Below, piece by piece: positions 766-59,952 of a stretch of DNA of 64,000 nt (position 1 is its first letter; each line of letters starts with the position of its first letter). A model generated the notes under the pieces. The model saw only the letters and a list, made by a program, of their open reading frames with translations. It did no database searches and had not been told where the DNA came from. Location of the stretch: the NCBI GenBank assembly GCA_973895155.1, contig OZ316895.1, positions 23,510,558-23,574,557 of the forward strand. Reading direction: 5' to 3'. The DNA comes from Marsupella aquatica (Eukaryota > Plantae > Marchantiophyta). The translations under genes were made by a program, and so were the position numbers.

Positions 766-2818
<2,053 letters not shown>

Positions 2819-18548: not shown

Positions 18549-19527
18549 TTCCCTAGATGGGGGTACTGCACTTCTTTATGGCTTGAATAATCTTTGAACA
18601 GATAGTGTTCCCTTTGCAGCGGGATGAGCACACTCAGCAGAGTAAAGCAAAGCTTTCCAGCATGTTGCCGACATTGCACACTTCATTTTACTGTTCCGTG
18701 GGGCGAGAGGCATTCGTTGTCGTCTCTCCTACAGTAGTGGTAGTGGGTGCAGCTGGTGGCAACGAGGAGAAACCAGAGTTCCAGACCCGTCTACAAGAGT
18801 CATCTGATCATCTCGTAGGACCAACACGATCATGGTATTGGGCAGAAGCTGGCCGTCTTTAGGCACAATTTGGAGTTGTATGTCGAATTGTCGACCATCT
18901 GGCAGGTAGAAGAAGACGACGACCAACAGCTAGAGCCAGTCCAACAGCCCAACAGCAACCAAGTAAGTTCAGTTTGGTCATCGTAGAGTACACAACAGAG
19001 TAGAACAGGAGGATAAGTTCCAGTAGGGTCTAGCTTCATTATTCAAAGAGGAGTAGTGGGCATTCTTATCGCACAAGGAGGAGCCAAGGGAAGCAACTTG
19101 AGATCGAGAAACTACTGTAGAAACGCTTATTGCCATCGTTCTTCCAATATCAAGAGCAGAGGATTGCAGAGGAGAAGCAAGAAGACGAGGGACGACATTG
19201 TCAAGCCTGTTCTCCAGTTGAAGGCAGAATTACCGTACAGTGGTAGAGAGCCATTGGACTCCGCAAGCAGAGTTGACACATGCGTTGCAAATTTGAGTCC
19301 AACAATGACGCTTCGGGGGCAGCCTTTATAACTCTATCCACTGTAAACAGAGCCTTCTAATGAGGTTGGGGTAAACCGATGAGCTTCCTTATGCCACGCT
19401 TTCTTCCCAACCCATTATTCTAACGATCTCCAACTCCAGCAAAAACCAGTTTCTTAAACTATAGCAGGTCCGTGCTAGGGTCAGTAGAAGGATTATCCAT
19501 CGGGTTTGAGTAGTGGGTTTTGAAGAA

Positions 19528-19929
19528 ATGGCATCGCCAAAGGTGCAGTTGATCAGAAAGTATTTTAACCTGATGATGAATTTCGACAGCGAGCCCAGGT
19601 CATACGAGGCGATACTGCATAAGGACATGGTGGAGACGGAGTACCCAAATCTGCTATCGCCAATCACCCGGAATCGCAGCGCCGAGGAAGGGTTGAAGGG
19701 AACAGCTATGGGGAAGCAGTTTCTCAAGTTCCAGAACTTCGCCATCCAAAAGGTGTTCGAGTCGAAGGATGCTGTCACTGTGGAGGTGATTTGGAGCGGG
19801 GAAGTGACAGCTGATATCGGTCCTCTGAAGACAGATCAGGCCCTTGAAGCTTTCGTCTGCTACGTCTTCGAGTTCAAAGATGGTCTCATACTCCATCAAC
19901 GCCATTATGACTGCTTCGGGCCTATTTGA
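19528..19929 (+). CDS. Intronless SnoaL-like / NTF2-fold protein (133 aa)
   Basis: ATG at 19528. Has the pattern of small bacterial NTF2-family proteins: EYPNLL, VTVEVIWSG, FEFKDGLILHQRHYDCF. Confidence 0.78.
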   Translation: MASPKVQLIRKYFNLMMNFDSEPRSYEAILHKDMVETEYPNLLSPITRNRSAEEGLKGTAMGKQFLKFQNFAIQKVFESKDAVTVEVIWSGEVTADIGPLKTDQALEAFVCYVFEFKDGLILHQRHYDCFGPI

Positions 19930-22669: not shown

Positions 22670-27234
<4,565 letters not shown>

Positions 27235-32701: not shown

Positions 32702-35673
32702 GTTTGAGCATTCAAAACGCTGCACGGGACGGGGGCTCCATATAGTGCCACCCCCAAGGCCTAGAAAAAATTGTATGGCTTCAAGTGGAGGGAATTAAGG
32801 GGGCTACAGTTTGCTGCCCAACTGGCCCAGTTTTAGATTCATGGTCTGTTTTAGGATTTATATTCAAATTGCACTTTGCAACCTTACTATGCAGTTCCTC
32901 TACTAGACATTTCAATTTGTTGCTGAGTTAGTAGAACTTTAGTTCTTTGGCCATTTGTACTGTTGGGGCTATTTTGGCTCTTTGGTTTTCTTCGGATTTT
33001 CCTATGGATTCCCCCATTTGTTTGTTTGGTTTTTGTCCTATTTGGATTGTTTCCATCGTTAGTGGGTTCTTACTTGGGGTTCCTTTCTCCCAGTATGACC
33101 CATTTGGTTGTTTCTTTTGTACTCTTATATATTCCATAGTTTCAACCCAACCAGCCTGAAAAATCTTACATCTTTATCACGTGGCTTCCAACGCATCTGT
33201 AAGTAATTGAAGGTTTATTAAATTATTCGTTTTGCTCTCTTTTCCTGGTAATTAAAACAGGGTTAAATGTTCCCTCACCAAACCCTATCCTGTTGCACAA
33301 CACCCACGCCACTCAGCTCCTGCCACCTGCTGGGGCATGTATCATCCTTACAAAAAAAAGGAGGAAATCCAGCAACACAACAAAAGGCAATCATGAGGTT
33401 AAGGGGAGATCGAATGAGGAGGGGCCTTTGGGCTAGATTTTATTTACTGGAGGTTTTCTATTGACTCTTAGACTAGATTTTTTAGTATCCTTTCTTGCCC
33501 ATCTGATTCATGGCAGTAGTTTATCAGTTATATTGCATTATTTATGGAGCTGCATGGAAAGTGAGGTACTTAGCAGTGGGGGCCCCATTGGCCAGGGCCC
33601 ACTCCTCTCTGCATACTCATGAGGGCTAAGCAATCAGGAAAAGCGAAGGCCAAGTCAAAATCTGATCCTTGCATGTGGGTCCCATATTTTGAATCTTGCT
33701 TTTTCATTCTACTGTATGACATATCCTATGACTGTAGATATAATTGTTTTTGAATTTTGGGGATTAACAAGATTTTTATCTCCATTTCTTGAGCATGGTA
33801 CAGCCTAATTTTGAAGGTTTTTCCATTTTGCCAGTGTGGCGAATGTCACCTTGCGAGAAGGAGAAGATGCCAGGAATATTCCTTATCTACTTTACTACAT
33901 TAATCTCTGGAGATGTTACGATGACCCTTAGATTCTGGCTATTGGGGTCATAGCTACAGTAGGTGGGAATCTGGCTAATGGAACATAGAAAACCTACACT
34001 AGTGAAGTACGGCCAAAGTGGTCAGGGCTTCTTAGTCAATTGTTAGCACTAAAAAAAACATGCTTGGCACCTCCTTGGAACCATGCAGTCCAACTGCACA
34101 GTTTTATGGAATGAGGGTGACCAAGGATTGCGCTTTTGACGACAGTGATATAAATAGATTAAACTCTCGATGTTGCATGGATTCTATGTGGAAGGCTAAC
34201 CCGTACCCATAGAAAAATGAAAAAATATGCATGCAGTTCAATTCCCACCACACGTATAAATCTCATGTGAAGATATGCTCTATACAATATGATTGTGTAA
34301 GGTAACGCGTGGCCTTGAGATTACAAAGGAAAAAACATACAGTAGGGGTTTATTTCTATAGGAATCCAATGGTGACGACCAGTGTTCCCGTTCTGTGCAA
34401 ATATTTAGCACTTTTGCTCCGGGGTGAAGGGGCTTGCAAATAATACAATGAGGGATTTAAACTGTTTTAGTAACTTATCTGCAATATCAACTGTCTGGAT
34501 CTGACTGTACATAGATATGATGGTCATAATGTGACCATACAAGTCCAATATGCAGTTTTATCTAAGTGACAATTTCTTAACTGGCTATAAGTAGCACCTG
34601 CCTAAAAACAAACGGAAACACTGGTGAGGACCCAGGTTTTGACTATCATTGTACAATGAATCTTGACACAAATATAGATCATTGTTATCTAAACTACTAG
34701 AATAACTCAGACCTCCATGTCTATTACTCCTCTAAATGTGACGATTGACAAACACATTTCAAAATGAGCATGATGGTTTACATATCCTTTGTTTACCATT
34801 TGATGTGGAAAAAGAGTCTGGCATACTCAGGACTGCCTGCCACCCCAATATCTCCCTTTTCCTCCCTATCATTGCAGTGCAGACATGACTGTCGGGCTGA
34901 CCTGGATACACAAAATGTCCAGCCACCGCACCAATTTCCACTACAACACTATGCACCTCTTTTGCGAACCACCACCCTTCGCATCATACAAAGGAAACAA
35001 AATCCGAAATACCCAATTTGCGAACTTACTCGCATCGCAACGTCTTCGCTACTTCCCATCTCAAATTCTTCGCAAATGGCCCTTCGCAACTACTTCGCAA
35101 CTTGCGATTCTAAATACGTCGCAACATCTCCGCAACGTTGCGACGGCACTGTCCTTGCAAATATTGAGAAACGACAAATTTCATTATTTTGCGAGAACAA
35201 ATGAATCGCTCGCGTTGCGATAACATTTACATCGCAATTTCCGATGTTAAATTTCTCTATAACTTGCGATGCAAACAAACTCGTAAGATTGCGAGAAGCG
35301 GATGACCGCTTTGTTGCGAAGGCATTTAACTCGCAAACGTGTGGAGAGGAAGTCTTCGCTAGGGTTGTGATTTAGACAACATCGCAAGTGTTGCGATGCG
35401 TTTCTCCTCGGAATGGTTGCGATACGTTCACCGTGGCTCTTTGAGATGGGGGTTGGTTCTCAAAAGCTTCGCAAAATGTATATTTCATGGGTTTTTGTGT
35501 ATTTGGGTTAGGGTGAGGGTGAGGGAGACCATTCATGGGTTTTGAAGCAGGGAGGAAAGTGATGTTGACCCAGTCTGCCGCAATTAAAATGGCATTACTG
35601 AAAAAGTACAAAAGTTACAAAATGGAAGGGTAAAAACCCTTAGGTAAAGTGCCACGGCCATGCATGCTGATCG

Positions 35674-37825
35674 CTATACATGTGAACTCGATGTAAGTGC
35701 TCTAGCTACAACTTGTCTACATCGAGCTAGAAAGGAGTGTTCCTGCCCCTCCTTGCCTTCTTCCCCTTGGCCTTCTCCTTGCCCTTGTGTGCTCTTGGGG
35801 GGGGGGGGGGGTGCAACCTGGACTTCCTCCTCCTCTTGGTCACCCTCGGGGTCACCCTCATCCTCATCCTCATCCCCACCTCCACCGCCCTGGCTTGCCG
35901 CGCTACCACCCCCAGCACCACTGGAACGTGCTGATGCAAATGACTGGTCTCCAGTGCTAGTTGGCCTGGCTTGAGTAGCAGGAGCTGTGCTCCCCTCCCC
36001 TGTCCCCTCCACATCCTCATCACTACTATCGGTGCCACCCTCGGTATGGGAGTCACCATCCTCCCCTCCCTGCTTCCATTAGCAAACTAGGGTGTCTGTT
36101 AGTCTCATATTCTTTACAAGTGTGAACAAAAGAGATATTCATTCAAAATTGCAATGAATGTAATAACCTAAAAATTCTCACCAATAATTCATCAACTTGC
36201 TGAAAGAGATGCTCCTTCCCATGTTTCTGGCCCACCTCCATCTCAGCCGCCGTAATCTTCCTCTTGTACCTCTTGTACTAAGCCAAAACAAAACCAGCAC
36301 AATTGGGTTAACACCAACCCATAACCCGATTCACATGGCTTCTAAAAATTAGGGGGTTTGTTGGGGCTGGTGGGGTGGTGCATCAAGGTTTTGGGGTTAT
36401 GGAGGGTGGCATATATGGGGAAGACCCTCAAAGAACACTTAAACGATCGGAAAATTTAAAAATTCAAATTTTTGAAATTTTGCGAAGGCGCCAGCTTCGC
36501 AATCATAAGGACAATTACGTTTGCGAAGCTGGTTGCGATGCCAATGTCTTCGCAACGCCTTCGCAAACGTAAGCAAAAAAAGGGCATAATAAGGTTTGCG
36601 AAGGATTTGCGAAGCTACCCGCATCGCAAATGTATCGCAAACTCTGTCATGGCAAAAACCCGAGAGGGAAGCAACTGTACGTGACCTAATCTGACACAAC
36701 AAGTCTAATTGTAACTACTTGGTGGAAATGCAAGAAAGAGTTGGCTCATTGCAGGTGTGTTGGAATAGGAATTGGAGTAGCAAGAAGTCAAGGGAGGAGA
36801 GGGAGGTGCACTCACGAATGTTGCTTTGAGGCCGGGGAGGCCACCTTGACCCAGCCTGTGGGTGATGTTGGGCTTGTCTCGGACTCGCTCAGCTGCCTTC
36901 AGGAACTTGTTGGGTGGATCGCCTACTTCTGCTACAACCTGCTAGAGCTGGGCTACCTTCTGCTCCATCACCTTCAGGTCCCGGTCAGACTTCCCGGCCT
37001 CCTTTGCCCTTCGAGCCTTTGCCAGCTTCTCTGTGAAATCATTGAGGAGCCTGGCTGCTTTCAACTTCACCTCTGTCTGGTAGAAGGCCTGCCAGATATC
37101 TTCTGAGAATTGCAGCGGCCTCTGCAAATTCCTATACTCCTCCAAATCTCTAAGGTGAGACCTGATCTTCATTCTATCATGGTATCTAGCTTGTGACATG
37201 GAGTTTGAAATTTTGTCAGCAAGCCACTGTGAATCCATCTCTCCTCCATTTCGAAATGCATCTTTCACCTGATTGATGACTCACTTCTGCTCTGCCTTTG
37301 AGCGAGTGCCCCACTCGACTCCTCTTGCAAAATTTGTGGATACAATGTGCCTGATTGTGCTCTTGGCCCCATTGTAAGCAAGCTCGGTGGGAATCCCCTC
37401 ATCCTCTAAAGTAATCAGAGGCAGCTTCCTCCTTGCTGCCTCCTTCTTTCTTTGCTCCTCCCTCTGTTTCCTGATCAGGTCTCTCTCATCTTTCCTCCTC
37501 TTCTTTTCCAATGCTTGAGGCGAGAGCACTCCAGCCTGAGCTCTCTCGTCCCTCTTTCGCTTCCTCTCAGCAGCCGCCTGCTCTACTGCCTTCCTTGCAT
37601 CCTCCTCCACTGCTGCTTGCCCTGCAATGAGACCTGCTTGCAAGGCTTGGCCCAGAAGGGCACTCAATGATGCCAGCCCTGCTGGACTGGTGAAATCAAT
37701 TTGACTCAATTGTGCAACCGAAAAATGCTCATCCACAATCGCCTTCAATCGATCCCCCCCCCTCGGTTGCCTCCGCTGCTGCCAGAAGCTCCTCCATCAC
37801 CACCAGTCCCCTCTTCGCTCGCCAT
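35674..37825 (-). pseudogene. CACTA second gene (TnpA/ORF2-like); exons 36816-37825, 36182-36277, 35674-36069
   Basis: EDIWQAFY and THRLGQGGL resemble the H-x-LG-x-GG motif of CACTA ORF2 proteins, and splice phases are consistent. Disrupted by a frameshift in a C9 run (~37755) and in-frame stops at 37281 and 36942. Confidence 0.62.
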
Positions 37826-38558
37826 CGCTCCGCCCTTGCCCTCGTTGCTCTCCTCAGGCCTGAATGAACTGAATCCGCCTTGTCCGCGCTCGGCAATCCA
37901 TAAGGATTCAAAATATTGGGCTTTGCGATTCGTTTCGCATCGCAGTTTGCGATGCATCGGCCTTCGCAAAAAGCTTCGCAAATTCTATCTTTGCAAAGTT
38001 TCAAGATTCGCAAAAGCCTTCGCTATTTGGTTTTGCCATAACCCCCGTCTCGCATGCGTATTTGATGTATTGTTAGGGATACTAAGGGGGCTTATGAACA
38101 TTAAATGGGGTAGATGTAGAGGATTATGTTGCATTTTAGTGGGATGTGATGAGATAAGGATTGGGGGGGTTAGAAAATTGAAGGAGTTATATTGCAGGGT
38201 AAGAGGAGGGGGTTTGGCCTGGTTAGGGGAGGGTTTCTTTTGTGAAGGTTGGGCTTAGATTGGCTTAGATACGAGGGGTTTTATGTTTTGGGTTTGCAGG
38301 GGGTTTTATTTATGAAGGTTGGGGTTATATGTATTGGAGGGTAAGAGCTAGGAGGGGTTTTATGTTTTGGGTTTTGGGGTTTAGGCCAACTTAGGAGGGT
38401 TTGAAAGAGAGGTTTCAGTTTTATAGTATCTTGGGTTACTTTTATGGTATCTTAGGAGGGTAACCAAGAGGGGTGGCATATAATTATGGTAGAGAGAAGC
38501 ATAGGATGGTTGAAGGGAATTGACCATTTAGGTTTTTGCTAACTTCATTGGCTTACGC

Positions 38559-39551
38559 TTTTAGAGTTCCCAAGGGTCTATGGTGGGTTTTTATTGCATG
38601 ACACTCACCTTTCACTTGAAGCGGGATGAGGTTTTGGTTTTTATGCTAACAATTGAGGGAAATCCCATGTAATCATGATCCAGTGCAGGACCATCACTGC
38701 TTCCTCAACTTTTGTCTAATGCATATGCATTGTGGGAACCCGGACATCTAAAAGGTATATTTAAACATGTATGTTAGCAGGGTTTGATAAAGAGATTGTT
38801 CATAAACCTTGCCCTTCTTTGTTGTGCAAGAATATCTATATGCACATGTTTGGGGGTCTACAACTTGAGAGAAGCTAATGGCTATCCAAACTTACTTTTT
38901 TGTTTCCAGTATTTTCCTCGTGCTTCTAGATTCAGCTCATGTTCAATGAGCCACACGACCTACAGGCACTATTGAGTCCGGATCTCATTCAGGTAATTAT
39001 TGTCCAACTTCATTCTGGGCTTAGGCCTTTAGAGTTTTCCCAGGGGTCTAGGGTGGGTTTTTATTGCATGACACTCACCTTTCACTCGAGGGGGGATAAG
39101 GGTTTAGGGTTTAGGGTTTTATGCTAACAATTGAGGGGAAAACCCATGTAATCATGATACAACGCAGGGCCAACACTACTACCTCAACTTTTGTCTAATG
39201 CATATGCATTGTGGGAACCCGGGCATCTAAAAGGTATAACATCATGTATACAGTCAATGTTGTTAGTACAGATTTTTATGCTTGCCCTTCTTTGTTGTGC
39301 CATGATATATGTGGGTAAATGTCTAAGATTCCACAACTTGACGGCTGCTAATTACCATCCAAACTTACATTTTGTTTCCAGTATTTTCCTCCTACTTCTA
39401 GATTTGGCAAATGTTCCAAAAATCACGTGACCTATAGGCACTGTTGAGCCCGGGTCTCATTCAGGTAATAATCTAACCTCACTTAGGACATAGGGTATTA
39501 CAATTTTCCCAAAGGTTATAATGTGGTTTCTTCTTGCATGACACTCACCTT
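38559..39551. repeat. ~470-bp tandem duplication (2 copies plus a partial third) between the divergent CACTA genes
   Basis: TTGCATGACACTCACCT at ~38595, ~39065 and ~39535, with matching flanks. Confidence 0.8.
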
Positions 39552-39707: not shown

Positions 39708-40874
39708 ATGTCCTCTTCCTCTGAACTATCCAGTAGTGAGTACTCCTCCGATGACGATATACCCCCTCCTCCTCAGCCCGAGGTTACTGGTCCTCGTGGT
39801 CCACCCCGAAGACTTTGTGACTGCACCAGATGTGTGGGCCAAATTTCTCAAAAATCTTATGTGTGTGCTCAACATATTGAGAGATATGGACGTCATAGAG
39901 GTCTTACTCCTAGGGCTTCTTCATCCCATATGGTAAGTTTGTTTCAATTGATTGCGGTTCTTTACTGTTATTTTTAGAGGTGAATCAATGTTTACACATA
40001 TGGTTTACACATTTGGTTGTTTGTGGGTGTTTGCATGGAATAGGGATCCAGTATGCGTAGATTGGTGACACCACCACCCTATGTCCCATCACAAGGAGTT
40101 TTAGATGCTATAGGCAATGCACTTTCACAAGCCTTGGGTTTGGGAATTAGTACCAGTCATGGGACAGAAGGGGAACACCCTCATGTGCCCACTGAGACAC
40201 GAAGACCCCGGTCCAGGCCCCAATCCAACAGGAGGCCACGAGCACCCAATGACCCATCCAGAACACTAGTTCAGGGTAGGTGGGGTGTTTGTTCATTCAC
40301 TGGCAAGTGTGCCTCTATCATCAAGGATTGGGAACCTATCACTCTTGGCTTGCCTTATTTTACAGATTTTGATGAGGAGATTGTGGTTTGGGGTAGACGT
40401 TGGATTGTGAAAACTTCCACACTTGGAGAGAGACATGGATATGGAGTATTTGCTTGTGAGGATATCATCATGGATGAGGAGGGTGGGTCAAGTGTTCGTG
40501 GTAGAGAGGGTCCTACTTTGTTCCCATACGGTGGACCCATCTACAAGAGAAGACATTGGAACATGATCCTTGCACAACATCCTGAGTGGAAAACATATGC
40601 TCTAGAGATGGATACTTTTGATGGTAGCACTAGAAGGTATAGTGAGCAGCGGGTGATAGATGGTGATCCCATACGTAATGGGAATATTGCTGGTTTCATA
40701 AATAGTACTGTGGGGACTCGGCCCAAGCGTAGGGCCAATTGTGAGTGGGTTTTTACTGATGGTCCAATGCCGGCACCATATGGCACGACATATCATAAGG
40801 ACCATTGCTTAGTTCTTGCTACTAGGACCATTAGAGCAGGAGATGAGTTATTCACACACTATGAGTGGGATTAG
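39708..40874 (+). CDS. SET-domain lysine methyltransferase-like protein in the CACTA element (exons 39708-39932 and 40044-40874)
   Basis: SET motifs HGYGVFACEDI, PYGG, YAL, IDGD..GNIAGFINS, NCEW, LATRTIRAGDELFTHY. Open frame with no stops and a phase-0 GT-AG intron. Confidence 0.82.
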
Positions 40875-43800
40875 GAAATCATGTCCTTTATCCTCTTGCA
40901 CCTATTTTGGACTTCCCATTTACTATTATATATATGGCCTTTGGGCTCATTTTGGAGTAATAAGGTTTTAGCCCATGCATTTACTTTAATTCTTAATGTC
41001 TTGAATGAATGGTGTTAAGTCTATTTTAATTTGTTGTACTTGGTCAAATATACATGAGGAGGTTTTTTGGTTGTAATGTGCATAGAATGCGCAACCATCT
41101 CAACAAATGTTACCACGAAGGTTGAGAGCAACATATTGGGAGATGGGTATGCCAGAAGAGGGAGAACCATCAGAGGGTGATTCCTCATCAAGTAATGATG
41201 TAGGTGGTGCTGATGAGGAAGCCGCACCTCGGACTGATGACCAGGTCATGCATGATCAAGATAGAGCCATGGATGACTTCATGGTTGATTGGTTTGGTGC
41301 CGATGTTGAGGATGATGTGCCTCACATTGGTCATGAGGTTGGCCCTTCAAATGACCCACGGCCACAACATACTCCAGAGGGACAACAACAATGGAAAGAG
41401 GCAGAGGAACATGCTCGAACACCTATTTTTGAGGGTGCTCGGTTGAGCCGTCTTTCTGCCATATTGGGGCTCTTGAACATTCAAGCCAAACACAAGACAA
41501 GCAATTCTATGTTATCAGACATATTTGAATATTGTCATGACTTGATGTTACCCTCGGAGAATGTGTTGCCAGGGACCTGGAAGGATGCAAAGAAGGTTCT
41601 CTCATCCATTGGTATGGATTACCATATTATTCATGCCTGTGTGAATGATTGCATGTTATTTCACGGGGATACAGCCCATATCACAGAATGCACAGTGTGT
41701 CATGAGCCACGGTATGAGCCAAACATGCTAACCCAGAAGGTACCAAGGAAAGCAGTTTGTTGGTTCCCCATAATTCCTCGCTTGTTGCACATGTATAGAT
41801 GTTCTTACTTGGCCGAGTTGATGGTATGGCACAAGAAACATCGTTCGGAGCCCGGTGTCATGCGATTACCAGTTGACTCTCCTGCTCATAAACATGTGGA
41901 ATCAACATGGCCAGATTTTGAGCGTGACCCTCGGCATGTGCGACTGGGGTTGGCATCAGATGGAGTTAGCCCTCATTCACTTGGAGGGAAGGGGAGACCT
42001 ACATCGGTCTGGCCTGTGGTTCTCATGAATTACAACCTTCCACCATGGTTGTCCATGAAAAAGGGTTTTTTGTTGCTATCTTTGATTATCCCAGGGCCAA
42101 AGAAGGTGAAGAACATGGACACCTATTTGACATTACTGGTTCAGGAACTCCAGAAATTATGGGAAGGAGTATGGGCATATGATGGTCGAAAGACTACAGG
42201 GGGTACCCCACGGGTTTTCAAACTCAAAGGGGTTTGTATGTGGACCATGCATGACTACCCAGGTAAGAACTTTGTTGTTTAAATGCATCATATTCTAATG
42301 CATGGTATCCCCTCATTTCCATGTGCTAATCCTAACATAATGTGTGTTTATATGACCAGGATTTGGCTTTGTGAGTGGGTTGCAAACCCAAGGCTACAAG
42401 GCTTGCTCCACTTGTGGCCCAAGCCTTGGTGATGTAGCCAAGTATTCATCACATCTTCGCAAGATTGTTTATCTTGGGCATACAAAGTTTCTTCCAATGG
42501 GACATCAGATGAGGCGTGACCCACTACTATTTTCCTCTATTGATATGCCCTTTGGTGACGAGCGTGATGTACCTGAGCCAACAACTTTTACACACTGGAA
42601 AGACATGGCTGCAAGAGTGGCAGACCCAGAGGATCCCATGCAATTTGATGGTAGTGGCTTGACAAGGTGGAGTATATTAACCACTTTGCCCTATTGGGGT
42701 GAGTTGAAGATCCGCCATCTATTAGACCCCATGCACATTGAGGGAAATGTGGGAAAGGCTTTGATAAAGGCTTTCTATGGAGAGAAAGACACTAACTTCA
42801 GGGAGGCTTGTGAGGATCTTGAGATGCATCCAGACGTGTGGGTCATAAGTGATCCTATCACAGGGATCGAGCATCGACCTTCAGCTCCATGGGTGCTTCC
42901 TATTGGCCAGAGAAGGGAGTTTCAGAATCGCATAGGAGACATGCGGTTTCCTACTGGTTATGGTGCCAATCTCCGAAAGGCCTTTGGGATGGAGGACAAT
43001 CATAAGTGGCCAAGGTATCTCAAGACACATGACTACCATAGGTTATTGCAGCACATATTGCCTGTGGCCATAATAGGTTTGGCAAGTGAAGAAGTGCAAG
43101 ATGCCCTTTGGTCATTGGGAAAACTATTGAGATGGGTATGCTCTAAGGAGATATATACTGATGAGATCCCTGGGATGGAGGTTTTGGTAGCAGAGGTGGT
43201 ATGCAAGTTGGAGAAGGCCCTTCCTCCTTCCTTTTTTGACTGTCAAGTGCATTTACTTGTTCATCTTGTTCATGAGGTGGCCATTGCAGGTCCTGTGCAT
43301 TGTCGGTGGATGTATTGGCTAGAACGATACATGGCAGTGTTAAAAGGTTATGTACGTAACCGTGCACGGGTTGAGGGAAGCATGGCTACAGGATACTTAG
43401 CAGCTGAGAGTATGTTCTATTGTAGTAACATATTGGCCACAATTGATTGTACCTCTCCCCGTACTTGGGTAGAGGAGAGGGAAGATGAAGAGGATCGTTT
43501 AACAGGTGCTAGGAAAACTCGCATGTTGACATCAGTGGAGGTGAAACAACTGACCACATTCATGTTGAGTAACAGCACTATCATGGAAGAATGGAGGGAT
43601 TTCTATGAGGATGCCAAAAGTAACAGCACAAGACCAAGGATTTTTCCAAAGTACCTTGACTATATGAAGGAGAAGTTAGTTGAGGTGGATGACATGGTGG
43701 TCAGGGGAGAGAGTGTATTACATTTTCCGGCTATCACAGATGATGTTCGTACCATTGTTCATGGTCCCTTGAGAGTGGTTACAACAAGGACAGCAATGTG

Positions 43801-44479
43801 GACACAAGGAAGACATTTCAGGTGATCTCCATCTACCTTAGTAACCTTTGATTTGAATCACTTGGTTTAATTTAATTCATTTGTAATACAAGCACGTATA
43901 TTGAAGAGGCAGATTCTTGGTGTGTTCAATTAATTGGAATATGTTTGTGTCTATTTTTGTGTAACATATCCTTATGGTTTGATGGATTTTAGGATTTCTT
44001 CCCTTGATGAGAAGAGGGGTCGTACCTTTGATTGTGGAGTTCAAGGACAATTCTCTCAAGATTCCCGCAGCAGTCGGCATGACACAAATATTATTCGAGA
44101 TGTTGTGCCACATTATGGAAAGGTAGAAGAGATTCTAGTGATATCTTATGATGCACAATCAAAGTTTGAAGAGTATGTCTTCAAGTGCAAATGGTTCAAA
44201 GTGAACCTTGCAGGTAACAATCCTACTGTGGTTCAAGATGAGTGTGGATTTACACGACTGAAGACTTCTGCCACTAGTTTCCAGCCATCTCATTGGCAAA
44301 CATCAGAGCCGTTCACTTTTCCAAGTCATGTGGAACAATGTTTCTATATTCCATACCCCCCAAACCCAGAGGAATGGTCACTTGTCATCACATATGTGCC
44401 ACGGTCTCGTTCAATCGTTGGGGAAAAGCCTGATATTCTGGTTGTGTCCCAACCTGAAGATGATGAGGACCAAGTTTGA
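39708..44479 (+). CDS. CACTA TnpD-like transposase (predicted exons 39708-39932, 41086-42262, 42360-43821, 43993-44479; 1116 aa)
   Basis: N-terminal CDCTRC..CAQH..YG transposase-associated motif; IHACVNDCMLF; LASDGVSP; YNLPPW; HDYPG; MHIEGNV; LKTHDYH; HLLVHL..GPVHCRWMY..ERYM; HYGKVEEI..FKCKWF. Exons sum to 3351 nt with no stops. Confidence 0.92.
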
Positions 44480-46562
44480 GGGGTCTGTGTTTGTGGATAT
44501 ATAGCTACACGGATATATAGTTAGATTTGATGATATGAAGATTTCTCTTCTCGGTAGAATGGAGAAATATGCGCTTCTCAATTATCAATAAACTTATGTT
44601 TTGTAAGTATATCATTTTCAAATGTTGTTTTCTATATCTCCCATCCCTACCCCACACTCACCACACCTTTTGGTAGACTTTATGCAAAGAAAACTCATGT
44701 TGCTTGTAGTCCTCTATCCTCCATGCTTTCCTAATCCCCCCTAGCTGTTCTCCTTATTACTTGTACCCACCTCCCTCCTCCTTTCTTTCATTGTCTGTCC
44801 CTCTTATTAAACCCTCCTTCCTCCTTCCTCTCCTTGTCCCAACCCCTGGCTTTCTATTTCAACCCTATACTTTCCTTACTTTCCACCCCTGTCCCCCACT
44901 CTTACCTATACAACCTAGCTTCTCTCCTCCCTCCTAAACCTATACCCTTAAACCTCCCTCATTTCCTTGTCCCTCTCTAAACCAATACCCTCCCTCCTTT
45001 CCTTGTCCCTCTCTAAACCCTAAACTCCCTCCTTTTTATTTTCACTCCCTAAATCCAAACCCTCCCTAAAACTATATCTACATACCCTTCCTCCTCCCTC
45101 ATTTCCTTGTGCCCCCTAAACCTGTATCCTCCCTCTTGGATCCCTCCGTTCCTTGTCCCTCCTAGCCCCATTCCCTTCCTCCTCCTTTTCATTGTCCCTC
45201 CCTAAAAATTACATGTATCCACCCTCCTTTACCCTCCCTCCCCAATCCCATTCCTTTTCCACCTCTTTGAAGCGCTCATAATATTTTGCGAAACATCTTG
45301 CGAAACCCCTACACCCGCAAACTCATCGCTACATTTGCGATACTTAACAGCTCCCTAATTGCCATCATCCCCTCATCGCAAACTTCCGAAGATACCACCA
45401 TCTCAAAGTTGCGAAACCAAAACATTCACAAAATGAGACCCTAGACAGGCACAGGATTTGCGAGCCTATTACTATTGCAAGTTAGCCATATATTCCACAA
45501 ACATCGCTCATTTGCGAGACAATAAGACTCGCAAAATATTTTGAGATGCTTAAATATTCGCAACCATTTAGTTTTCCAGCGCATCTCAATGAATTTGCGA
45601 AGCGGTAAAGATCGCTAACTTGTTCAATGGTAATTGCTTCGGGAATGTTTTGCGATACCTGAAGTGTCGTAAAATGTTGCGATGGTCTAAGTTTCGCAAT
45701 TATGTGTTGCGATGTGTGTAGATTCGCTAAGTGCGATGCGTATCGTATCGCAAGGTTAGCGATGAGATTAATCTTGCAAAGCTTTCTTCCTCTTGTAAAA
45801 CGCCTTCGCAAAATTGGCAAATATGTAGTAGTGTTCCCGTCCAGAGATTTCCCTCGCCATCATGGAGAGTCACACTTACAAGAAATCTTGAGAGACGGAA
45901 TATGATTTGGCATACTCTTGGAGCACTTAAAATACAAGGAAGGCAATTAAATATGGCTGATGTCTGCTCCACAAGGAAGAAGACAACAAACACCCATTCT
46001 GGTTCTACCCTTATTCTGGCTCTACCCTTACGCCCAAAAATGTGGTCCAGGAGATGGGTTATAGTCATCCATCTTATGAAACCAACTGTAGCAGTCTTTC
46101 AAGAGGCTTCATTGTCTCAATCTTCATCAATGAGGGCCTAAAGAAGATGACAAATTCTGTTATGATGGCAAGTTCTCTCAGGGCTTCATTCGCCATAGTG
46201 TTTAGGAGCATTCAATTTGGATTCAAATGGTCACCATGTGGATGTGAAGTGGTCAATCTGCCAATGTATTTTTGTTACAAAAGTGAGGGTGTGTTAGATG
46301 CAGTAGGACCTGTTCATGTAATCCTAAGTGAAATGATGGCTGTAGACAGAGAATTATGCTGGATGTTTATCTGTCCATCTATCTCTAGGGAGAAACAAAG
46401 AGTGACAAGGAAACTGGTGACACATGAAACAGTGAACTGTCCCTGCCAGAACCTAGGGTGATAGGAGAAATGGCCAGGTGATAAGGGAGATGGCAAGGTG
46501 ACATGGGATATCTCTGGACAAAGCAAATATTCAACCCATTGTCAAATACTTTAAGGTCATGC

Positions 46563-46698: not shown

Positions 46699-48426
46699 TA
46701 TACAGTTGGTGTACACATTGAGCGCTACCAGCAAGAGAGGAATCCTGTCAGGGTCAATCAAAATTCAACACAGGGCCTGAAAGTACGATCAAAGACATAT
46801 GGTCTGAGTTATGAGCTATACAGTTTCCCAGGTGTCTCCCCACATATGCCGGTCGACATAAGGTCACCCTATACCTCATAATGGCGACCATATGACCTTA
46901 AACCTATACATTATGCTTGCTTTGTGACTTCTTTTGTTGCAAGTTGGAATGCTCCACCAGTTGGGGCATCTCTCACCAAAGCTAAGCTTGCACCCTACAC
47001 TTTTAACATATTCTCCTTCCGAGCAACCATAAGCCTATCTTTTGTGCCTGGGTTTAATTTGACCTCATTGTCATGCTAAATGAGCTTCGATCTGTCGTTG
47101 CCACATGTTTAGCTTTCATGGAGTGTTCCTCTACTTTGGTCGTTGCCTATAGCCCTGGCTTTGTTGGGCCAGTTTGTTTTGTGGTGTAATTTCATAATGT
47201 CCCAGTTCCATTCCAATAAATAGGCAAATTTTACTCGGTAACATTAAGGAGGAGGCAAAAGAGCAGGCAAAGAGAAAGGGGAACAACCCAAGTGGGGCCT
47301 ACGGGTCACCTCAGGAGGCCAAGGATGGCTTGTGCCCAGCAGGTCTCAAGTTCAATCCCAATCCAGTCAATTCTGCTCCTCCATGTCATATGGATTCTGT
47401 GCCAAATTGGCCTGGGCGGGTCAAATGTGTTATGTGCGATAGGCTGGTTTGAAGTGGGTGAAGCCATATCATTTTCAAGCATTACCATTTAGAGAAATGG
47501 TTTTGTTGGAAGATGATAGAACAGATCAGCTTATCAGACAAAAGTTTCAGTCACCTTCATGATGCCCCTCTCCTGTCTTTGCGCGAAAGATTGTTTCCGT
47601 CCCACCCCTACAGATTGATTTCCCAATTTTGCAATGGCCAGTGGCACTTGGATGGTGAAGAATGTAATTCAGGACAATCCAGCCACACATGACTTAGACT
47701 CATCAGCTTATCCTGAATGAGACTAATTGCCTTGCTGCCAGCTAGATGTGATACAACGGGCAGTTGAAGTAGACATACACATTGAGCAGAAATAGATCGC
47801 TGAGCAAGTACCACGTGCAAATTCTGAATCTTGATTTCGTGAATGCAGCACGACATTGAGACATTACGTGCAGAGATTCAAAACTTTCTTCACCCACCTA
47901 CGCATCTATTAAATCTTCAAACCTTTCAGCACTTGCTGCTCAACTCTCTATTGTGCATCTGAAAATGGCCTCAAACGAGAAGCTAGCTCAAATGAATGCC
48001 CGTGCTGCTGACATCACATTTTGCAAGACAGCAGCGTGATGACCTCAACTTTCAGAGTAGGCCAAAATTGTGGAAGTGATCTTGATCCTGCTCATTCTAC
48101 TGCTTTTTCTTGGGAGCAGGGGAATACGCTGTTGCAGTAGGACCAAACATCTACCATACGGCCTTCTGAAGACATCCATTATTGGAGCATTGCCTGCAAC
48201 AAGTGTCCCACTTCGGATGAGCAAGAAATATATATCTAGAACTGCAAAGTTTTAACTCCACTAAACGAGCCTCTCAAGCTACCCCTCGACATTGTCCCGT
48301 GTTTCGAGCTAAGAGCTTTTTTGAGTCATGCCGATATCTCGACAGGCCAAGGAAACGACTATGAAATGCCGCAAAGAAGGAATCAAGGACGGTGTGACAA
48401 ACCTTTCCTATTCCAACACAAACTGC

Positions 48427-51400
48427 TCAGTCTGTCTTCTTGTCAGCTGCTTTTTGATCACCATCAGCTGTTGGCACCTCTCCTTCAGATGTGCTTTCTT
48501 CAGAGACAGACTCATCAAAATCAAGTAGCTGCAGTTCAGGCAAAGACAAGTAGGCCACATGTAAGTACGCTGGTCCATTCAACATATTTATGCAATTATC
48601 TTTCAGGTAGTCCTCCATGAGATCTTTACCGCAATCGTAAGGAAAAATGATGCAGAACTTTACCGCTTTGACTTCTCCTTTCATCAAACTGTGAACAGCT
48701 ACGAAACCAATAACACCTGGTACAATGTAGAGTAGAGCTGGCTGCAACACACAAAGAGGAGTAGGTTAGAGACGATAAAAAGTGAGCATTCACCTAGCTG
48801 TGGTCTTAATAACGACGTAATCTCACGTGAAACAGACGTGAAGGAGATTGGGAACATATCATTCGCTTTCAACATTTGCAGAGCTCACATGTGCAGATAG
48901 GATGTTTCCGTAAGGCTAACCTGAGCAGCTTGAAACCAATTCATGACAACTATGGTCACCAATAATCCTGCAGTATACCCCGCAAAGGCACTGTTGAAGT
49001 AGCGTTTGCCGGTCTTCTGAGAGACGTCAAACCGTAGAGCAAGGGCTACAAAAATGCCTGTACATGGAATTCAATTAAGTCAGCAACGAGTATACATATC
49101 TGAAAGAATGAGAATTTGGAGTTTAAAATAAAATCCTGGGGACTGACGTAACCACAAACCTGGAATGACAATGTCGCCCAAGCCCAGCATGGAGAATGGT
49201 CGGGTTATATCTCCTGTGGGAAATATCAGCTGCGGAATACACGAAACAAACAAATATCAAAATTTCGAAAGCAATGCTTCCGACCTGAAACTTCAGTTAT
49301 TGGATGATGTGAAGAAAAGCCTACATTACATGGAAAGTGTCTGACCCAGTGGCTAAGATTTAGTAGAGTATATACCCCAAACCTATCTGCCAGTGAGGAG
49401 TGCTTGAATGCCCTTTTGTGTAGACCAACTACTGCAACGCATCGAAGGGAAATGAATGATGTACCTTGATAGGAGCGTCAAATGACTTAGCAACGCTGAC
49501 CATAACCGGAGTAAAGAAGACCCAAAATATGTCATAGAAAAATAACCCTGCCTACAAAGTACCAAAACAAATTATTCAGTAATAGAACGAAAGTCTGGGT
49601 ACGTTATAAACTTCGTAAGCCGAAAATAAGTAGGAGATACGCTACACAGTAATTGCCAATTAAACTTCACTTTCTCCACAATGGGGAACGGTCCACAAAA
49701 CACTCCCATCAGAGAAGTTTCGAATGAGAACATAACAAATACATACCAGCAGGATCGCACCGATCTTGAATGATCCTAGAGACAACATCTCAATACCCTG
49801 CAGGAAATTTGCAAAGAGGCAAAGACTATTGGTCCTCCGCGAAAATCTTACGACAGGGAATTCAGGAGCTTGACCGGCATAAAACGTGAGAGATGCAAAC
49901 ATTGTGAATTCCAAGATGTCATTGTGTATATTTTCTTCAACAATATTTGAAACCAAAGTGATAACAAGAGCATTAAATACCTGTATGGAGAAGGCCAACC
50001 CCAGTGTATTGTTTGCCAGCCAATGCTTCTTCAAGACATACCAGACACAAAAAAAGGTGCCTGGAATGCCTGCAATGACCTGCGACTTGGTGAACACCAC
50101 CTCCACTTCTGCATTGTATCCAAGGCAATTAGTTTTGGCAACGTATAAGTCAGCTCATCGGTGTGCCACAAACTATTTGAAGACTTTCGTTTTCGGGAAG
50201 ACATTATCTCTCTCCGGCCATCAAATGAAAGCATGTGCACATGGATAGGCTAAGAATGGTTTTGGCACATATTCGCTGTGTCAACACAACTGGTACAAAT
50301 TATTTCAAAGGGATCGAAGTGACCAGTTCAACAGGCAAGGAATTACGAAAGAGAAAATGCGCAAAACTTCGGGAAATCTCACTTTTGAAATAGGGGAGAT
50401 CCCAGGTGATAGGGACATCATTCCAACTTGGGGGCAGGAAGCTGTCAATCACCGGTAATATTGTTGCACTGCAAAACATCAATAGATGTAAACCAGATGG
50501 TAAGCACACAATCTGCAACATTCACGTCTCAACATATTGCTCCAATATTCAAGGCTATCCAAAAACACAAATCTCTCTGAGACGGTCATGAACCGTTTGG
50601 TAGAAATGAAACAAAGTGAACAATAACATCTAACGTTCAGACTGATGCAGAAAAGGATAGCTTAGCATTGCCCACAAAATTAGTGATTTTGAGCCCACAT
50701 ACGATAGCGCAAGAATGCCCAGAACAAAGAAGTAGACCGTGAGGACTGTGTTGATCAGATCCTTCGGAAGGAACTTGAATAGAAGGAAAAGCGAGAAAAG
50801 AACAGCACTCCCAATGAATGGAAAGCGCATTGCGTGCTCCTTCGACATTGTTTCCTGCAATACACAGACAGCCCTTAGAGGTGCATCAAAACCCTACGTG
50901 AATTTTCACCTTGAGTCAAACAGCCTATCCAGCCAAAATTAAAGAGCTAGAAAAAAGCAGATTAAAGGAGGCAGAGAAACTTACAGTAGGAGGCGCAGGC
51001 TTGACAGAGCGGTGGCAACCAATGAACACAGTCAGGCATGCTGTTGCTATCACATTGAAGTTCGGGTTCACTGTCACTACCAGAGGTGCCAGAGTCAAAC
51101 CTGCAAACGAAAGGTGTACAAAAGATGCCGTGCTTAAGATCAAGCTCAAAACATCTGAACTCCACGGGCCAAATATATTTTTTGCGCTCGCTGTGATCCT
51201 TAAGGGAACCAAGGCCACACCTGATGGCTAATACAGCACAGCTGTGGCTGATGTACAGGAACATTCCCAAACCTTACCAACGGCATACTGCAAACCTACA
51301 AGGTGTGGCTTTGAATTTAAATTGGCGTAAATTGAACTCCCAAGAAGCAAGATAGAATCCCAGACTGATGCTTGAACCCGGTTATTTCGCACATTGCAAG

Positions 51401-54575: not shown

Positions 54576-55563
54576 CTAATTCAGTACTGGTTTGACAAGG
54601 TTTGAAAAGTTATGCCATTTTTGTGTAAGATACCGCCGATTGGTAGAACAGGACCCTCTAAAATTTGCAGTAAGGGGACATGCAACATTGGCGAACTACT
54701 ACTCTTTGTGTACTTATAGATTCCATCAGAACTCTCACTGTCGAAGACTCCAGTCAATCCCAGCCGACTTCAACAATAACTGGCCGTCAGGATCTCTCGA
54801 AAGACACATACGATTGACTAGACTGCTGAAGAGCAGACATTCACGGCTCCGAAAGTATTACAATTTAGTTCAACTCAAAAGTTGCCATCTTCTGAAAACA
54901 GTGTCGACAAGCATGTAACCATTGGACAGTCTCATGACGGGACAACACTTTAACAAATGAAAATTCATATTCCGATATACTGTTCAACTGAAGTACATCG
55001 GAAGTTCCGGAAATGAGATGCACGCAAACAAATATTTCATGAAGAGACTCGGCTACTTCCGTTGAGAACGGAGGGACCTGTTTATTTGCTCAAAGAAATT
55101 TAACTGCCGAAGAACATGTAATGCCAAACTTAAAAAGGGTAATGCCATTACATCGAAGACCTTAGAGTTGACTACCATGCGGGAATAATCATGCCATCAG
55201 AAGTCCCTGCATGCTTCAAAAAAGGAAAATATGCACCCCGACGTCAGAAGTCCGTCCAGAAAAGGAAAATCTGCACCCCGACCTTGAGTGTAAGCAGACC
55301 TGACGCTGATTTGGCTCAGCGTTCAGATAGACACTCTCGGAAAGCATAAATTAGACTGATTGTTATATAGCCAGAGAGAGCAGCTAAACTCCGAGGTGCA
55401 AGCATCATCCAGAGGATCTTCCAACAAAATCTGTACGAACGTTATGAGAACGATAATTGCGAACTACCTGACACGCACGGCTACTTGTCTAAACCCTGAC
55501 CGGTTCCGAATGTGGAGCTGAACTGGTAAGATCTGGTACTTTTGAAACATCATGAGCTTCTTC

Positions 55564-56601
55564 CTAATCATCATCCGAACCATCATCAAGTCCTTCCAAA
55601 ACATCAAAAACTTTAGTCTTGAGCATGTGGAAGTGTTCCCTGAAGAGCGTCTCGGCTTCCTGTTGAAGTTTAGTTGCTGCAAGCGTCCGAGCGAGTCTGA
55701 GCATGTGTGGCACATTATCTACTGTTAATTGTCGGCAAAGCTCAGAAAAATTCCTTCAGAAATCCAATTTCCAGACAATGTGCAGCTCTGAGGACCTCAT
55801 CAGGGCGAACAAATTCCGAGAAAGTTAATTCTCCAGAATGACAAAAATTCGATAGTTCTTCGTAGACTGGGTCTGTGCCAGAAAACAGCTCCTTGACCGG
55901 TTTCAGTCCAGTTCGACCATTCGCTATCGCCTCTTGGACGAATCGTGATTTTGCAGCCTGTACATCATGTTGAAACAATATTGTTAACCAACGAACAAAG
56001 ACACTCATATATCCTAAAGTCACATTTAAGATTTGATTTTCATGAAATGACGCCAGAAGTAAACAAATATTTCGAGGTCCAACTACACCGTCATTTTTGA
56101 GGAACAGGAAACAGACGTTGGCGTGATGTCAGCCAATGGGATTAGAAGCAAGGAGTACAAATTCCTCACCACGACAGACAAAATTACAGCTGCAGGTGTA
56201 GGCACCGTAGAGCCATTGAGCTTTCGCATTGTCCACGCAGGCAGAAACTCGCGGGGCAGTTTCAAAAACTGCACCATAATTCCCTGGCTAAGGTTTTCGG
56301 CCTTCAGCCTCTCAACCTCCGATAGTAATTGCTCGTACTCTGTGCTCTTGTTCGTCAATGCAAGGGAGCTCTCGGCAGTTATCCTGGACAGTTCAGTTTG
56401 ATGATTTTCTTTGGACGCGGCAAATGCAGCCCGCACCAACCTCAATTCAGCCTGAAGTTCCGTAACTTGTTTCTCATGGCGCGATTGACAACTGGAGCAG
56501 CCAGAGATATCCAGACGATATTGACAGCCACTTACCCAAGTACGAACCACTGCCGGTAAATCGGCCTCCAAACAGTATTTACAATACTTCTGTGTTGACA
56601 T
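55564..56601 (-). pseudogene. Cys-motif/coiled-coil/BTB-POZ gene, copy 1 (frameshifted)
   Basis: Exons 56170-56601 and 55564-55957. A 5-nt deletion relative to copy 2 near 55745 (FLKEF) shifts the frame. Confidence 0.75.
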
Positions 56602-58671
56602 TACTGCTAGATAGCGATCGGTCTTTCAAGACATATCAATTACCGTTTATTCGAGAAGCTAAGCATTGAAGCCAAGACGTTCTAAAGGGAAGATCAACAA
56701 GTCAATCAAATATATTAAGGTTGAAAAACGACGAAGATGTCACTCATGAACTACTCAAGAGCAGATAACACGACAATCGCTTGATACAGATCATCTCTAG
56801 TGAGAACCCGGGGCACGGCAAGAGATAACACGACAATCACTTGATACAGATCATCTTGAGTGAGAACACGGGGCACGAAATAGAACACTGAAGCCGGGAC
56901 TGACGCACGATATAAATCTCTCTACCATTTGTTGAGTGAAATACCCACTGCTGATTTTGTCTGCTTGGACAAACCGGAAATGGCGGGACTCCAGGAATCT
57001 ACTAGGCCGATCTGGCGATCTGCTGTGTGTTCGCAATAATTAAGCACGGAAGGGGACTAAATGGGTTGAATAATGTGGCCGCCAGCAGCCAGCCACCCTG
57101 GCGGCGTAATGTCTGTAGTATGCAGGTCATAAGAAATAATGTGGAATCTACTGTACTGTAGATGTACCATATGTCTGCCGACGAAACCAGATGATAACTC
57201 AGTCATGTAAAGTACTCCCCACAGCATTTCTAAAACCATGCCTAATTCGTTGTTTGTTTCGTTGAAATGCTGAGCCACGTACAGTGATCTGTCCACACGT
57301 ATAGGTGGAATGACTGTGTTCAACATGCGATGTAAGTCATAATTACTGGACCCGCGCCGCTGAGTTGTAACTTGCGATCGATTGAAATGCGGCCAAGTGT
57401 CCCTTTTATCTTTTTAACTTTCTTCCGAGAGAGGTTACTTTCCGAAATTAACGAGTCACAGCAAGTTCAACAAGTGATGCATTTACAAGTGCTAGAGATT
57501 AGTGTATACTTTCGTCTGACAATAAACTACTGACTGTGTTTCCCCTTCAACTGTCATCGATGTTACCGATCAAACGTGACCGGGATGGCAACTACGATGT
57601 TGAAAACAGACGTTGCCAATTGACCAGTTTTCTTATTTCAAGGGTTTAAGCTTTGAAAGAAACGCTAGTTTTTCTCTTGTTTCAACGGTAGGCGATATTC
57701 CTTGTTAACCATAAAATTACTTTGCAATCCCGAGAGAATTCATTCCTTAATCTTCAGGTACACGTAGGATAGACATACTGTAGGGCTACCGACGAAGCCA
57801 GATGATAAAGTCCTACAGTCAGTATAAAAAAGCGCAGCATTTCTAAAGCCATATCTAATTTCGTTATATGTTTCCTTGAGATGGTAAGCCACTTACGGTG
57901 ATCTGTCCACACGGATGGGTGGAATGACTGTGACACAGAGTTCAACTTGCGACGTTAGTGATAAAATACTGTACCCCTACGCGCCATGTGTTCTTGAGAT
58001 GGATTGGAATGTGACGAAGCGTACATTTGCATGTTTCCGATCCGTCCTACTAACAGGGCAGCTGAGTAGTCTCGCTGAGATCCCGGCTGAGATCGCCTTG
58101 CTATTTAATGCAGGTGGAGGGAGAGGGCGATCGAACGCGCGAATGTGCTCCAAGAAATTTAGCTACCAAGGAGATTGATAAATCAACGATGGAGACCAAA
58201 TTTTAGAAGCAGAAAAGGTGCCATAAATATGATGCCATACAGTTTGGACAAAACATCATGTAATTAAACCAACGACCATGTAGTTGATTGCAAGCAGATT
58301 CAACCCTGACAAAATTGGTTGAGATGCGGGAATGGTTCCACGACAGCTTCCAGAATTCAGACATCCTTCTTCAAGAGAAAGGAAATCTACACCTCAACCA
58401 TTGAGTGGAAGCAGACGTCACGCTATTTGCTTAGCGTTCGAGTTAGACATTCGCAGGAAATTATAGATCAGGAATTTATAGATCTTAGTCAAAGGGCAGC
58501 TAAAATCCGAGGAAGCATCATCCAAAGAAGGATCTTCGAACATGATACCGTGGGAAAACTAGATTCAAAGAATCATTTCGTACTACTACATTTGGAGCCC
58601 AGTAATTATCAAAATACTGGCAGGTCCCGAATGTGGAATTGAAATGGTTCAAAACAGGTCCTTCCGAAACA

Positions 58672-59952
58672 TCAGATCCTTCCGGTCGTAGCATGATCAA
58701 GACCTTCTAGACCGTCATAAAACTTAGTCTTCAGCATGTCGAAGTGTTCCTTGAAAATATTCTCCGCTTCCTCTTGCAGTTTAGTTGCTGCAAACTTCCG
58801 AGAGAGTTTGAGCATCTGTGGCACATTATTTACACTTAATCGTCTGCAAAGCTCAGCCTCACAAAACTCCTTCAGAAACCCAATTTCCAGATTATGTGCA
58901 ACTTTCAAGACCTCATCAGGAGGCACTAGTTTCGAGAAAGTCATTTCCCCACGATGGCAAAACGTCAGTATTTGATCGAGTATTGGCACCGTCACAGTCC
59001 CAAGAAGATCCAGTAATGGTTGCTCTAAAATTTGACTTGCGCGTAGCATCATCCGGACGACTGGCGATTTTGCAGCCTGTACATGTAACAAGGCATAACA
59101 TCAATTACGAACGGAGTACATATCGACGACATAACCTTAATTTACCTAGTATCTGCTTAGACGTCCTCCCAGCTGGCTTCCAACATTTATTTCGACTCTT
59201 AGATTCGACAATCAAGGAAACCAATTCAAATTGAAACTGACTTCCTACGCAATGTCCTCCAAGAACCACTCACAAATCACCCCATGAACTTTGGAGAAGA
59301 GAATGTAGCATGCATGGTGTTAAAATCAAGAAAAAATTTAGAGGTCGATCCCCACCGTCATGAGGTGTTTCGTTTAGAAGGAAACAGAAGCTGACGTGAT
59401 ATCAGCCAATTGAATTGCAAGTATGGAGTACGAATTTCTCACCAGGACAGACACCAGGACAGATAACTCTGCACCTAGACGTGGAGGTATCTTGAGGCCA
59501 GTCCTGGCCGCTTGCAGTTGCCACACATGCACAGGCGGGGGGTGCAGTTTTAAAAATTGCACTATATTCCGCTGGCTGTCGTTCTGAGCCTTCAGCCTGT
59601 TAACCTGCGACAGTAATTGTTCGTACTCCGTCTGCTTGTGCACCAAGGCAATCGATCCCTCCGATAGCAATTGCTCGTACTTGGCCTTGTTGTTCATCAA
59701 GGCAAGCGAACTCTGGGCTGTTATCCTGGACAGTTCAGTTTCGTGACTCTCCTTCCCGCTTTCTTCCGACTTTGCAAATGCAGCCCGCAGAGACGTCAAT
59801 TCCATTTGAAGGGCCATAACTTCTTCCTCATGACGCCGTTGACAACTGGAGCAGCCCGAGATTTCCAACCGGTGAGAGCCGTTTTCCCAACTACGAACTA
59901 CTTCCTTCTGATCAACCTCCAGACAGTATTTACAGTACCGTTCTGCATTCAT
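58672..59952 (-). CDS. Cys-motif/coiled-coil/BTB-POZ (BACK-like tail) protein, copy 2 (intact, 304 aa)
   Basis: Exons 59443-59952 and 58672-59076 are in phase. VL|AAKSPV..M, ILTFCHRGE, VLKVAHNLEIGFLKEFCE..L..NNV are BTB-type motifs. Confidence 0.82.

Follow-up and report, generated by a model that had tools for sequence, protein, structure and literature searches.

We found that a young CACTA transposon of the liverwort Marsupella aquatica encloses an open reading frame with a SET fold, and that this frame is predicted to be an alternative last exon within the transposase gene of the same element. The stretch of 64,000 nucleotides that was analyzed is called the window throughout, and the features of the element are listed in Table 1. 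Taken jointly, the element, its ends and copies, the SET fold, the conservation of gene order, the splice signals and the active-site positions can be regarded as established with near certainty. The SET product is quite probably an active methyltransferase, judging from the residues it has kept, and it may serve the element by marking its chromatin.

Table 1. Features of the CACTA element and its target site (positions in the window)
Feature	Position	Strand	Basis or remark
Left target-site duplication, TTC	34936..34938	.	Termini search; empty-site contigs in runs X3 and X4
Left terminus CACTACAACA and subterminal TTGCGA/TCGCAA repeats	34939..35500	+	19 motifs in bin 35000-35499
Acidic ORF of low complexity; may be a 3' exon of the minus-strand gene	35677..36086	-	No Pfam family
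ORF2, the second gene; TnpA-like only in its position	36816..37825	-	This copy broken: two stops and a frameshift
Tandem duplication of ~465 bp, 78% alike	38541..39551	+	Lies between the divergent genes
Predicted exon 1, 75 aa, CxCxxC-x13-H-x3-G, phase-0 donor GTAAGT	39708..39932	+	Predicted common to both products
SET exon: basic linker, then SET core 40260-40871, stop TAG	40044..40874	+	ORF, Pfam, structure model, fold search
Spacer after the SET stop: diverged interior, conserved CATAG acceptor at its end	40875..41085	+	
Transposase exon 2	41086..42262	+	PF02992
Transposase exon 3	42360..43821	+	PF02992, PF13960
Transposase exon 4, stop	43993..44479	+	PF13952
Right subterminal repeats and terminus, CACTACTACA on the minus strand	45270..45833	-	Termini search; depth drop in run X1
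Right target-site duplication, TTC	45834..45836	.	Termini search and run contigs

Ends, copies and mobility of the element

An earlier note, made from the sequence alone, had placed the SET frame within terminal inverted repeats and a target-site duplication, and the analysis of the termini bore this out. The window holds 54 CACTA and 68 TAGTG sites, and pairs of these around the SET frame were tested as element ends. Six pairs had a 3-bp flank in common, of which only 34939/45833, with TTC on both sides, reached at least 9 of 15 terminal matches. The element thus delimited is 10,895 bp long and has CACTA...TAGTG termini (CACTAC ends), with nine of the first ten bases inverted-identical. Subterminal repeats (TTGCGA/TCGCAA) number 52 inside the element compared with 20 in the remaining 53 kb of the window.

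Public sequencing runs provided direct evidence of mobility. Contigs from runs X3 and X4, which belong to another study and organism code than run X1, connect the left flank directly to a single TTC, with 20 of 21 adjoining bases matching, and so represent the empty site. Other flanks were seen at the right end among the matches listed for all four public runs compared. The flank contigs of run X1, which may be the source sample, do not differ from the window; in this run, depth was 15.5–15.9 outside the element and 330–610 on single contigs inside, dropping from >300 to 15.9 at the right end. Because of the empty site, the other right-end junctions and this difference in depth, we conclude that the element is young, multicopy, recently mobile and insertion-polymorphic. 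The depth suggests ~20–40 near-identical copies, which is a rough reading, as depth does not equal copy number. The exons of the element are CpG-poor (observed/expected 0.28–0.38 vs 0.60 in a host exon), which indicates that it has been methylated over long periods, with no lasting escape from DNA methylation.

Gene structure and predicted splicing

The SET frame comprises 276 uninterrupted codons with the motifs GYG (40437), FPYGG (40521), GFINS (40692) and ELFTHY (40845), the last followed by E-W-D and the stop, so that the frame ends three residues after the conserved Tyr, as had been described. Two earlier statements needed qualification. The frame had been taken for an intact SET gene; it is indeed open and has the SET fold, but the prediction makes it the second exon of a 351-aa product rather than the whole gene, and its start adjoins a splice acceptor AG at 40042–40043. 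Likewise, the reported lack of pre-SET and post-SET Cys clusters holds for the frame itself, whereas the upstream exon adds a CxCxxC-x13-H motif. No pre-SET, post-SET, reader or known DNA-binding domain was found in the SET product, and the C-terminal flank of SET is almost absent.

When joined in silico, exon 1 and the SET exon encode 351 aa, and exon 1 and the transposase exons encode 1,116 aa, with no internal stop in either. The acceptors of the SET exon and of transposase exon 2 are both in phase 0 with exon 1, and two splice products are therefore predicted. On these signals, the SET exon is predicted to act as an alternative last exon inside intron 1 of the transposase gene, and the two products probably come from one promoter. 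The open 1,116-aa model represents a Tnp2-type DDE transposase (PF02992, PF13960 and PF13952), and we take the positions of its DDE triad to be those of this transposase type. Exon 1 did not reach PF13963 in Pfam but resembles the CxCxxC..H start of CACTA transposases: its gap-free alignment to an N-terminal profile scored 11.2 bits, a score surpassed by 2 of 2000 shuffles. The profile was built from the 35 CACTA transposases, out of 59 retrieved, with the CxCxxC..H motif near their start.

The same arrangement was followed through 38 peat-bog metagenome loci. These are mostly of one close family, and the counts drawn from them therefore represent about three lineages rather than 20–26. The splice sites recur at these loci, all in phase 0: the donor is GT in all 17 loci scored, and the acceptor is kept in 22 of 25 loci for SET and in 20 of 21 for the transposase. 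Three subfamilies differ in the spacer that follows the SET stop, and only its terminal CATAG/AAT is conserved. In gene models deposited for five Sphagnum species and for Calypogeia fissa, themselves predictions, exon 1 is joined to SET. The 16 public runs listed as matching the stretch include no RNA run, which has no bearing on whether it is expressed. An in-frame Met lies near the start of transposase exon 2 in 21 of 21 loci, and the transposase could therefore also start without exon 1. The gene model P0021, which is spliced from within SET to the transposase, was set aside as a probable artefact of gene prediction, since the acceptor that it uses lacks a pyrimidine tract in the sequence of the locus. 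In five loci (L001, L011, L013, L024 and L027), transposase exon 3 shows an additional gap of ~150 bp at codon 198–199, probably an intron, which is absent from the window.

Fold and active site of the SET product

The SET frame matched PF00856 above the cut-off (E 5.7e-6; 27.1 bits vs 22.4). Since this match is modest, the fold evidence carries the SET claim. The AlphaFold2 model of the SET core, based on a 40-sequence alignment and replacing one from 23 sequences (pLDDT 61.6), reached a pLDDT of 89.3 and a pTM of 0.85, and every match listed by Foldseek was a SET structure (best E 2e-7), so that profile and structure both uphold the domain assignment of the earlier note. Viral SETs also match by fold (best E 5e-7). 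A wide fold search placed Set1 first (Z 12.1, rmsd 2.6, 124 aligned residues), followed by SET8 and SET7/9 (11.7), EZH2 (11.6) and NSD2 and LegAS4 (11.1), with identities of 16–30%, the highest being that of LegAS4 (30% over 129 residues); EZH2 was 20–23% identical. Activating and repressive enzymes are thus tied within ~1 Z and no subfamily is prominent. On the model, the SET fold is certain, and no subfamily assignment follows from it.

At the sequence level, a phmmer search of the PDB with the SET core retrieved nothing relevant, and a profile search of the PDB gave matches at E 0.33 or worse only, 12 of the 15 being SET proteins, with no solved canonical SET below E 0.3. Scans of viral contigs and of prokaryote genomes, both pattern-based and hence insensitive, detected no sequence relative of the family. 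An Atlas query with member P0013 returned its own cluster first and then unnamed and haptophyte SET clusters, which we treat as a lead only.

The residues expected of a SET active site are well conserved. In an alignment of 40 diverse members, G62, P89, G92, Y95, G145, N160 and E196 (SET core numbering) are invariant, and by column counts the GxG, the YxG, the Asn of the NH motif and the C-terminal Tyr are all present in the family (G62, G92, Y/F90 and E196 in 40 members, Y113 in 39, N148 and Y201 in 38). A small residue (T, V, C or A) occupies the Phe/Tyr switch, the position limiting the methyl number in canonical SETs, and would allow several methyls. The absence of the His of the canonical RFINHS, already remarked on for this copy, turned out to be family-wide: Ser takes its place in 38 of the 40 members, and none of the 90 motif-bearing members among 131 new representatives has a His after the Asn. 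Counting along the HMM alignment, Y113, N148 and Y201 align with Tyr159, Asn181 and Tyr220 of LegAS4, which has a Phe where the NH-motif His would be. LegAS4 is an active H3K14 enzyme, and the accessible text lists these three among its cofactor-cleft or active-site residues (10.64898/2026.05.29.728679); the NH-motif His is therefore not required for activity. The minimal SETs of bacteria and giant viruses (LegAS4/RomA, vSET-like) are also alike in having no pre-SET or post-SET zinc clusters, whereas LegAS4 differs in its ankyrin repeats and a further C-terminal Tyr. The very short C-terminal flank is the main structural doubt on the activity of the SET product.

Conservation, selection and distribution

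Exon 1 was found 5' of SET in 18 of 19 loci and the transposase 3' of SET in 18 of the 22 loci with at least 400 bp downstream; of the four loci without it, one (L038) holds an unrelated SET of bacterial type and three are copies that break off within SET. The left terminal sequence CACTACAACA was found 3.7–3.9 kb 5' of SET in four of seven long loci checked. Gene order also recurs in gene models of Sphagnum, Calypogeia and Riccia, and SET continues to the transposase in Riccia and Sphagnum models (P0021, P0145, P0242, P0248 and P0270). The members from Riccia sorocarpa are 30–46% identical, with an exon-1-like start in P0127, P0235 and P0248 and a transposase continuation in P0145, P0242 and P0248.

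Between the window and 26 loci with at least 150 aligned codons, dN/dS was 0.19–0.28 for SET and 0.13–0.22 for the transposase exons, and by this sequence measure the SET exon is under purifying selection. Among near-identical loci (pairs with dS <0.3) the ratio was 0.88, as expected of copies decaying after insertion. Neither of the outcomes that would have refuted the earlier note, a lack of the SET fold or a neutral single-copy capture nearly identical to a host exon, was found: the SET-fold gene is element-borne, multicopy and under purifying selection, and it did not arise recently by the copying of a host exon. A candidate signal of synonymous constraint on SET (dS 0.54–0.77 vs 1.2–1.5 in transposase exon 2) was dropped, as the intervals at fourfold sites overlap.

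The full profile search retrieved 223 clusters at E <=0.001. Those named among the 20 new representatives looked up were four from Riccia, two each from Calypogeia and Adiantum, and one each from Ginkgo and Psilotum; a marginal match among the 20 was a thraustochytrid multi-SET protein. Distant His-less members therefore occur beyond bryophytes, in Psilotum (P0274, with a transcript-contig name), Ginkgo (P0289) and Adiantum (P0326 and P0335). The SET domains of the window, Sphagnum and Calypogeia (P0002 and P0036) form a tight, well-supported clade, with the Riccia members far off; fourfold sites are not saturated. From this moss–liverwort clade, horizontal transfer among bog bryophytes is possible.

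Other genes of the element and the window

The minus-strand ORF2, although broken in this copy, has sense codons at positions 36944 and 37283 in contigs of four runs, and in most contigs overall, and is open in locus L035. It is conserved (~60–75% to the metagenome loci) and was found in 9 of the 12 loci with enough upstream DNA. ORF2 matched no family in Pfam or the PDB, and a TnpA-like identity, which its position had brought to mind, was supported neither by these nor by a pairwise test.

Elsewhere in the window, a Ty3/Gypsy-type LTR element (6902–17238, plus strand), whose two ends carry identical repeat stretches of 329 bp, encodes a C5 cytosine DNA-methyltransferase domain (PF00145, E 5.6e-8) 5' of the reverse transcriptase and a PHD finger 3' of the integrase, with several stops in its frames; it is the second transposon of the window with a chromatin enzyme. 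Host genes lie at 766–2700 (minus), 19510–19929 (plus), 22670–23695 (minus) and 48400–51200 (minus), and include a SnoaL-like and a C2H2 zinc-finger gene; by their motifs, we take two of the window's host genes to be GAPDH-like and signal-peptide-peptidase-like. Three tandem gene copies with a weak BTB domain occupy 55500–64000 on the minus strand.

Possible role of the SET product

We propose that transcripts from the transposase promoter would have exon 1 spliced to either the SET exon or the transposase exons, and that both products would carry the same zinc-finger-like start. The SET product would be a lysine methyltransferase that marks histones at copies of the element, targeted by the shared start and its basic linker, possibly through the transposase or the ORF2 protein; such a histone substrate and such targeting are somewhat favoured over other possibilities. 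By analogy with VANC and TnpA, the mark may keep the copies transcribable. This anti-silencing direction, and with it the full explanation, is the best that we can offer and remains tentative, at a little under an even chance.

Two readings, each of them unlikely and to about the same degree, also assume an active enzyme. The mark might instead be repressive or insulating (H3K27-like or H4K20-like), leaving the copies in reversible facultative heterochromatin or limiting their own harm. EZH2 and SET8 are among the tied top structures, and bryophyte transposons are often found in facultative heterochromatin, according to the accessible part of one study (PMC10952607); against this, no subfamily is prominent and the identity to EZH2 is low. 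The element is somewhat richer than the rest of the window in telomere-like AAACCCT/AGGGTTT motifs (11 in 10.9 kb vs 12 in 53 kb), which would suit a repressive mark, but this excess is small and may be due to chance. Alternatively, the enzyme might act on a protein other than a histone, such as the transposase, the product of ORF2 or a silencing factor of the host. SET7/9, an enzyme with many non-histone substrates, is likewise among the tied matches, the common first exon would bring both products together, and the SET core is not strongly acidic (25 K+R, 27 D+E). However, all close folds are annotated as histone enzymes, and the SET cargos of other transposons have been described as histone methyltransferases, if by homology only.

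That the SET fold is dead, and was retained as a lysine reader, a decoy or a splice-based brake on transposase output, is less likely again. The family-wide loss of the His and a median tail of only seven residues after the last Tyr (new representatives) are consistent with lost activity, and transposase output would fall if transcripts were diverted to a terminal exon, regardless of what that exon encodes; yet the Gly, the Asn and both Tyr are near invariant down to 30% identity, beyond the needs of a brake, and LegAS4 is active without the same His. A neutral, Pack-CACTA-type capture of a host SET exon, although gene-fragment capture by CACTA elements is known (from reference titles in PMC4158355) and near copies show a dN/dS of 0.88, is largely refuted and very improbable, given the low dN/dS between lineages, the unchanged position of SET from Sphagnum to Riccia, the distance from any solved canonical SET and the 223 clusters that make up a separate family.

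Relation to known systems

The novelty implied by the earlier note, which knew of no SET-encoding CACTA family, was overstated, because SET cargo has been described on Plavaka (PAG2), HarbingerS and MuDR elements. Red-algal Plavaka elements, of the EnSpm/CACTA superfamily, carry the accessory gene PAG2, an N6-adenine methylase–SET fusion (10.1101/2025.02.11.637652). As described in the accessible text, PAG2 resembles the present case in placing a PF00856 SET domain on an EnSpm-superfamily element over long times, with a function proposed from homology, and differs in being a separate fusion gene within a three-gene PAG1–3 cassette on elements of 17–19 kb. The element in the window is set apart by a lone SET exon within a plant-type Tnp2 transposase gene with a predicted common exon 1; its ORFs include no PAG1–3 cassette and no N6-methylase, and its SET product has PF00856 alone. 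SET genes are also reported on HarbingerS and MuDR of Phytophthora (PMC12730594), and SET-bearing Helitrons are cited (10.1101/2025.02.11.637652); these too are DNA transposons with a SET accessory gene, but, as described in the citing papers, of other superfamilies and hosts than plant CACTA.

In maize En/Spm and Arabidopsis Spm3, alternative splicing of one gene gives TnpA, which is anti-silencing, and TnpD (10.64898/2026.08.24.746577). The CACTA termini, the 3-bp duplication, the subterminal repeats and, here by prediction, two products per transcript are shared with these elements, whereas their second product is a DNA-binding regulator and ours has an enzyme fold, and ORF2 is here a separate minus-strand gene. 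The accessible part of that paper mentions neither SET domains nor mosses or bryophytes. VANC of VANDAL (MuDR) is the established anti-silencing model (PMC12730594) and is likewise a chromatin regulator encoded by its element; VANC is sequence-specific and non-SET and its effect has been demonstrated, whereas that of the SET product is inferred. Our literature search retrieved no paper describing a plant SET-bearing CACTA family; Repbase Reports, subscription journals and preprint supplements, which may hold one, lay outside it.

The window contributes a family that was active recently, whose empty site was observed and whose SET and transposase frames are intact, and the range of the SET family is extended further across land plants. 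The known plant anti-silencing factors, VANC and TnpA, act by DNA binding and loss of DNA methylation, and the SET cargos on other transposons have, in the sources available, been assigned by homology only. The boldest version of our proposal is doubtful and somewhat unlikely as a whole: an old land-plant CACTA lineage of mosses and liverworts, with fern and Ginkgo relatives, would produce, as a splice form of the transposase, a histone writer with which it marks its own copies, perhaps at a lysine that the host does not use. The common first exon, if true, would be an unusual route for adding an enzyme to a transposase gene. With a small, well-folded SET candidate in a young element, and in plants with many transposons in facultative heterochromatin, the idea that a transposon writes its own histone marks becomes directly testable.
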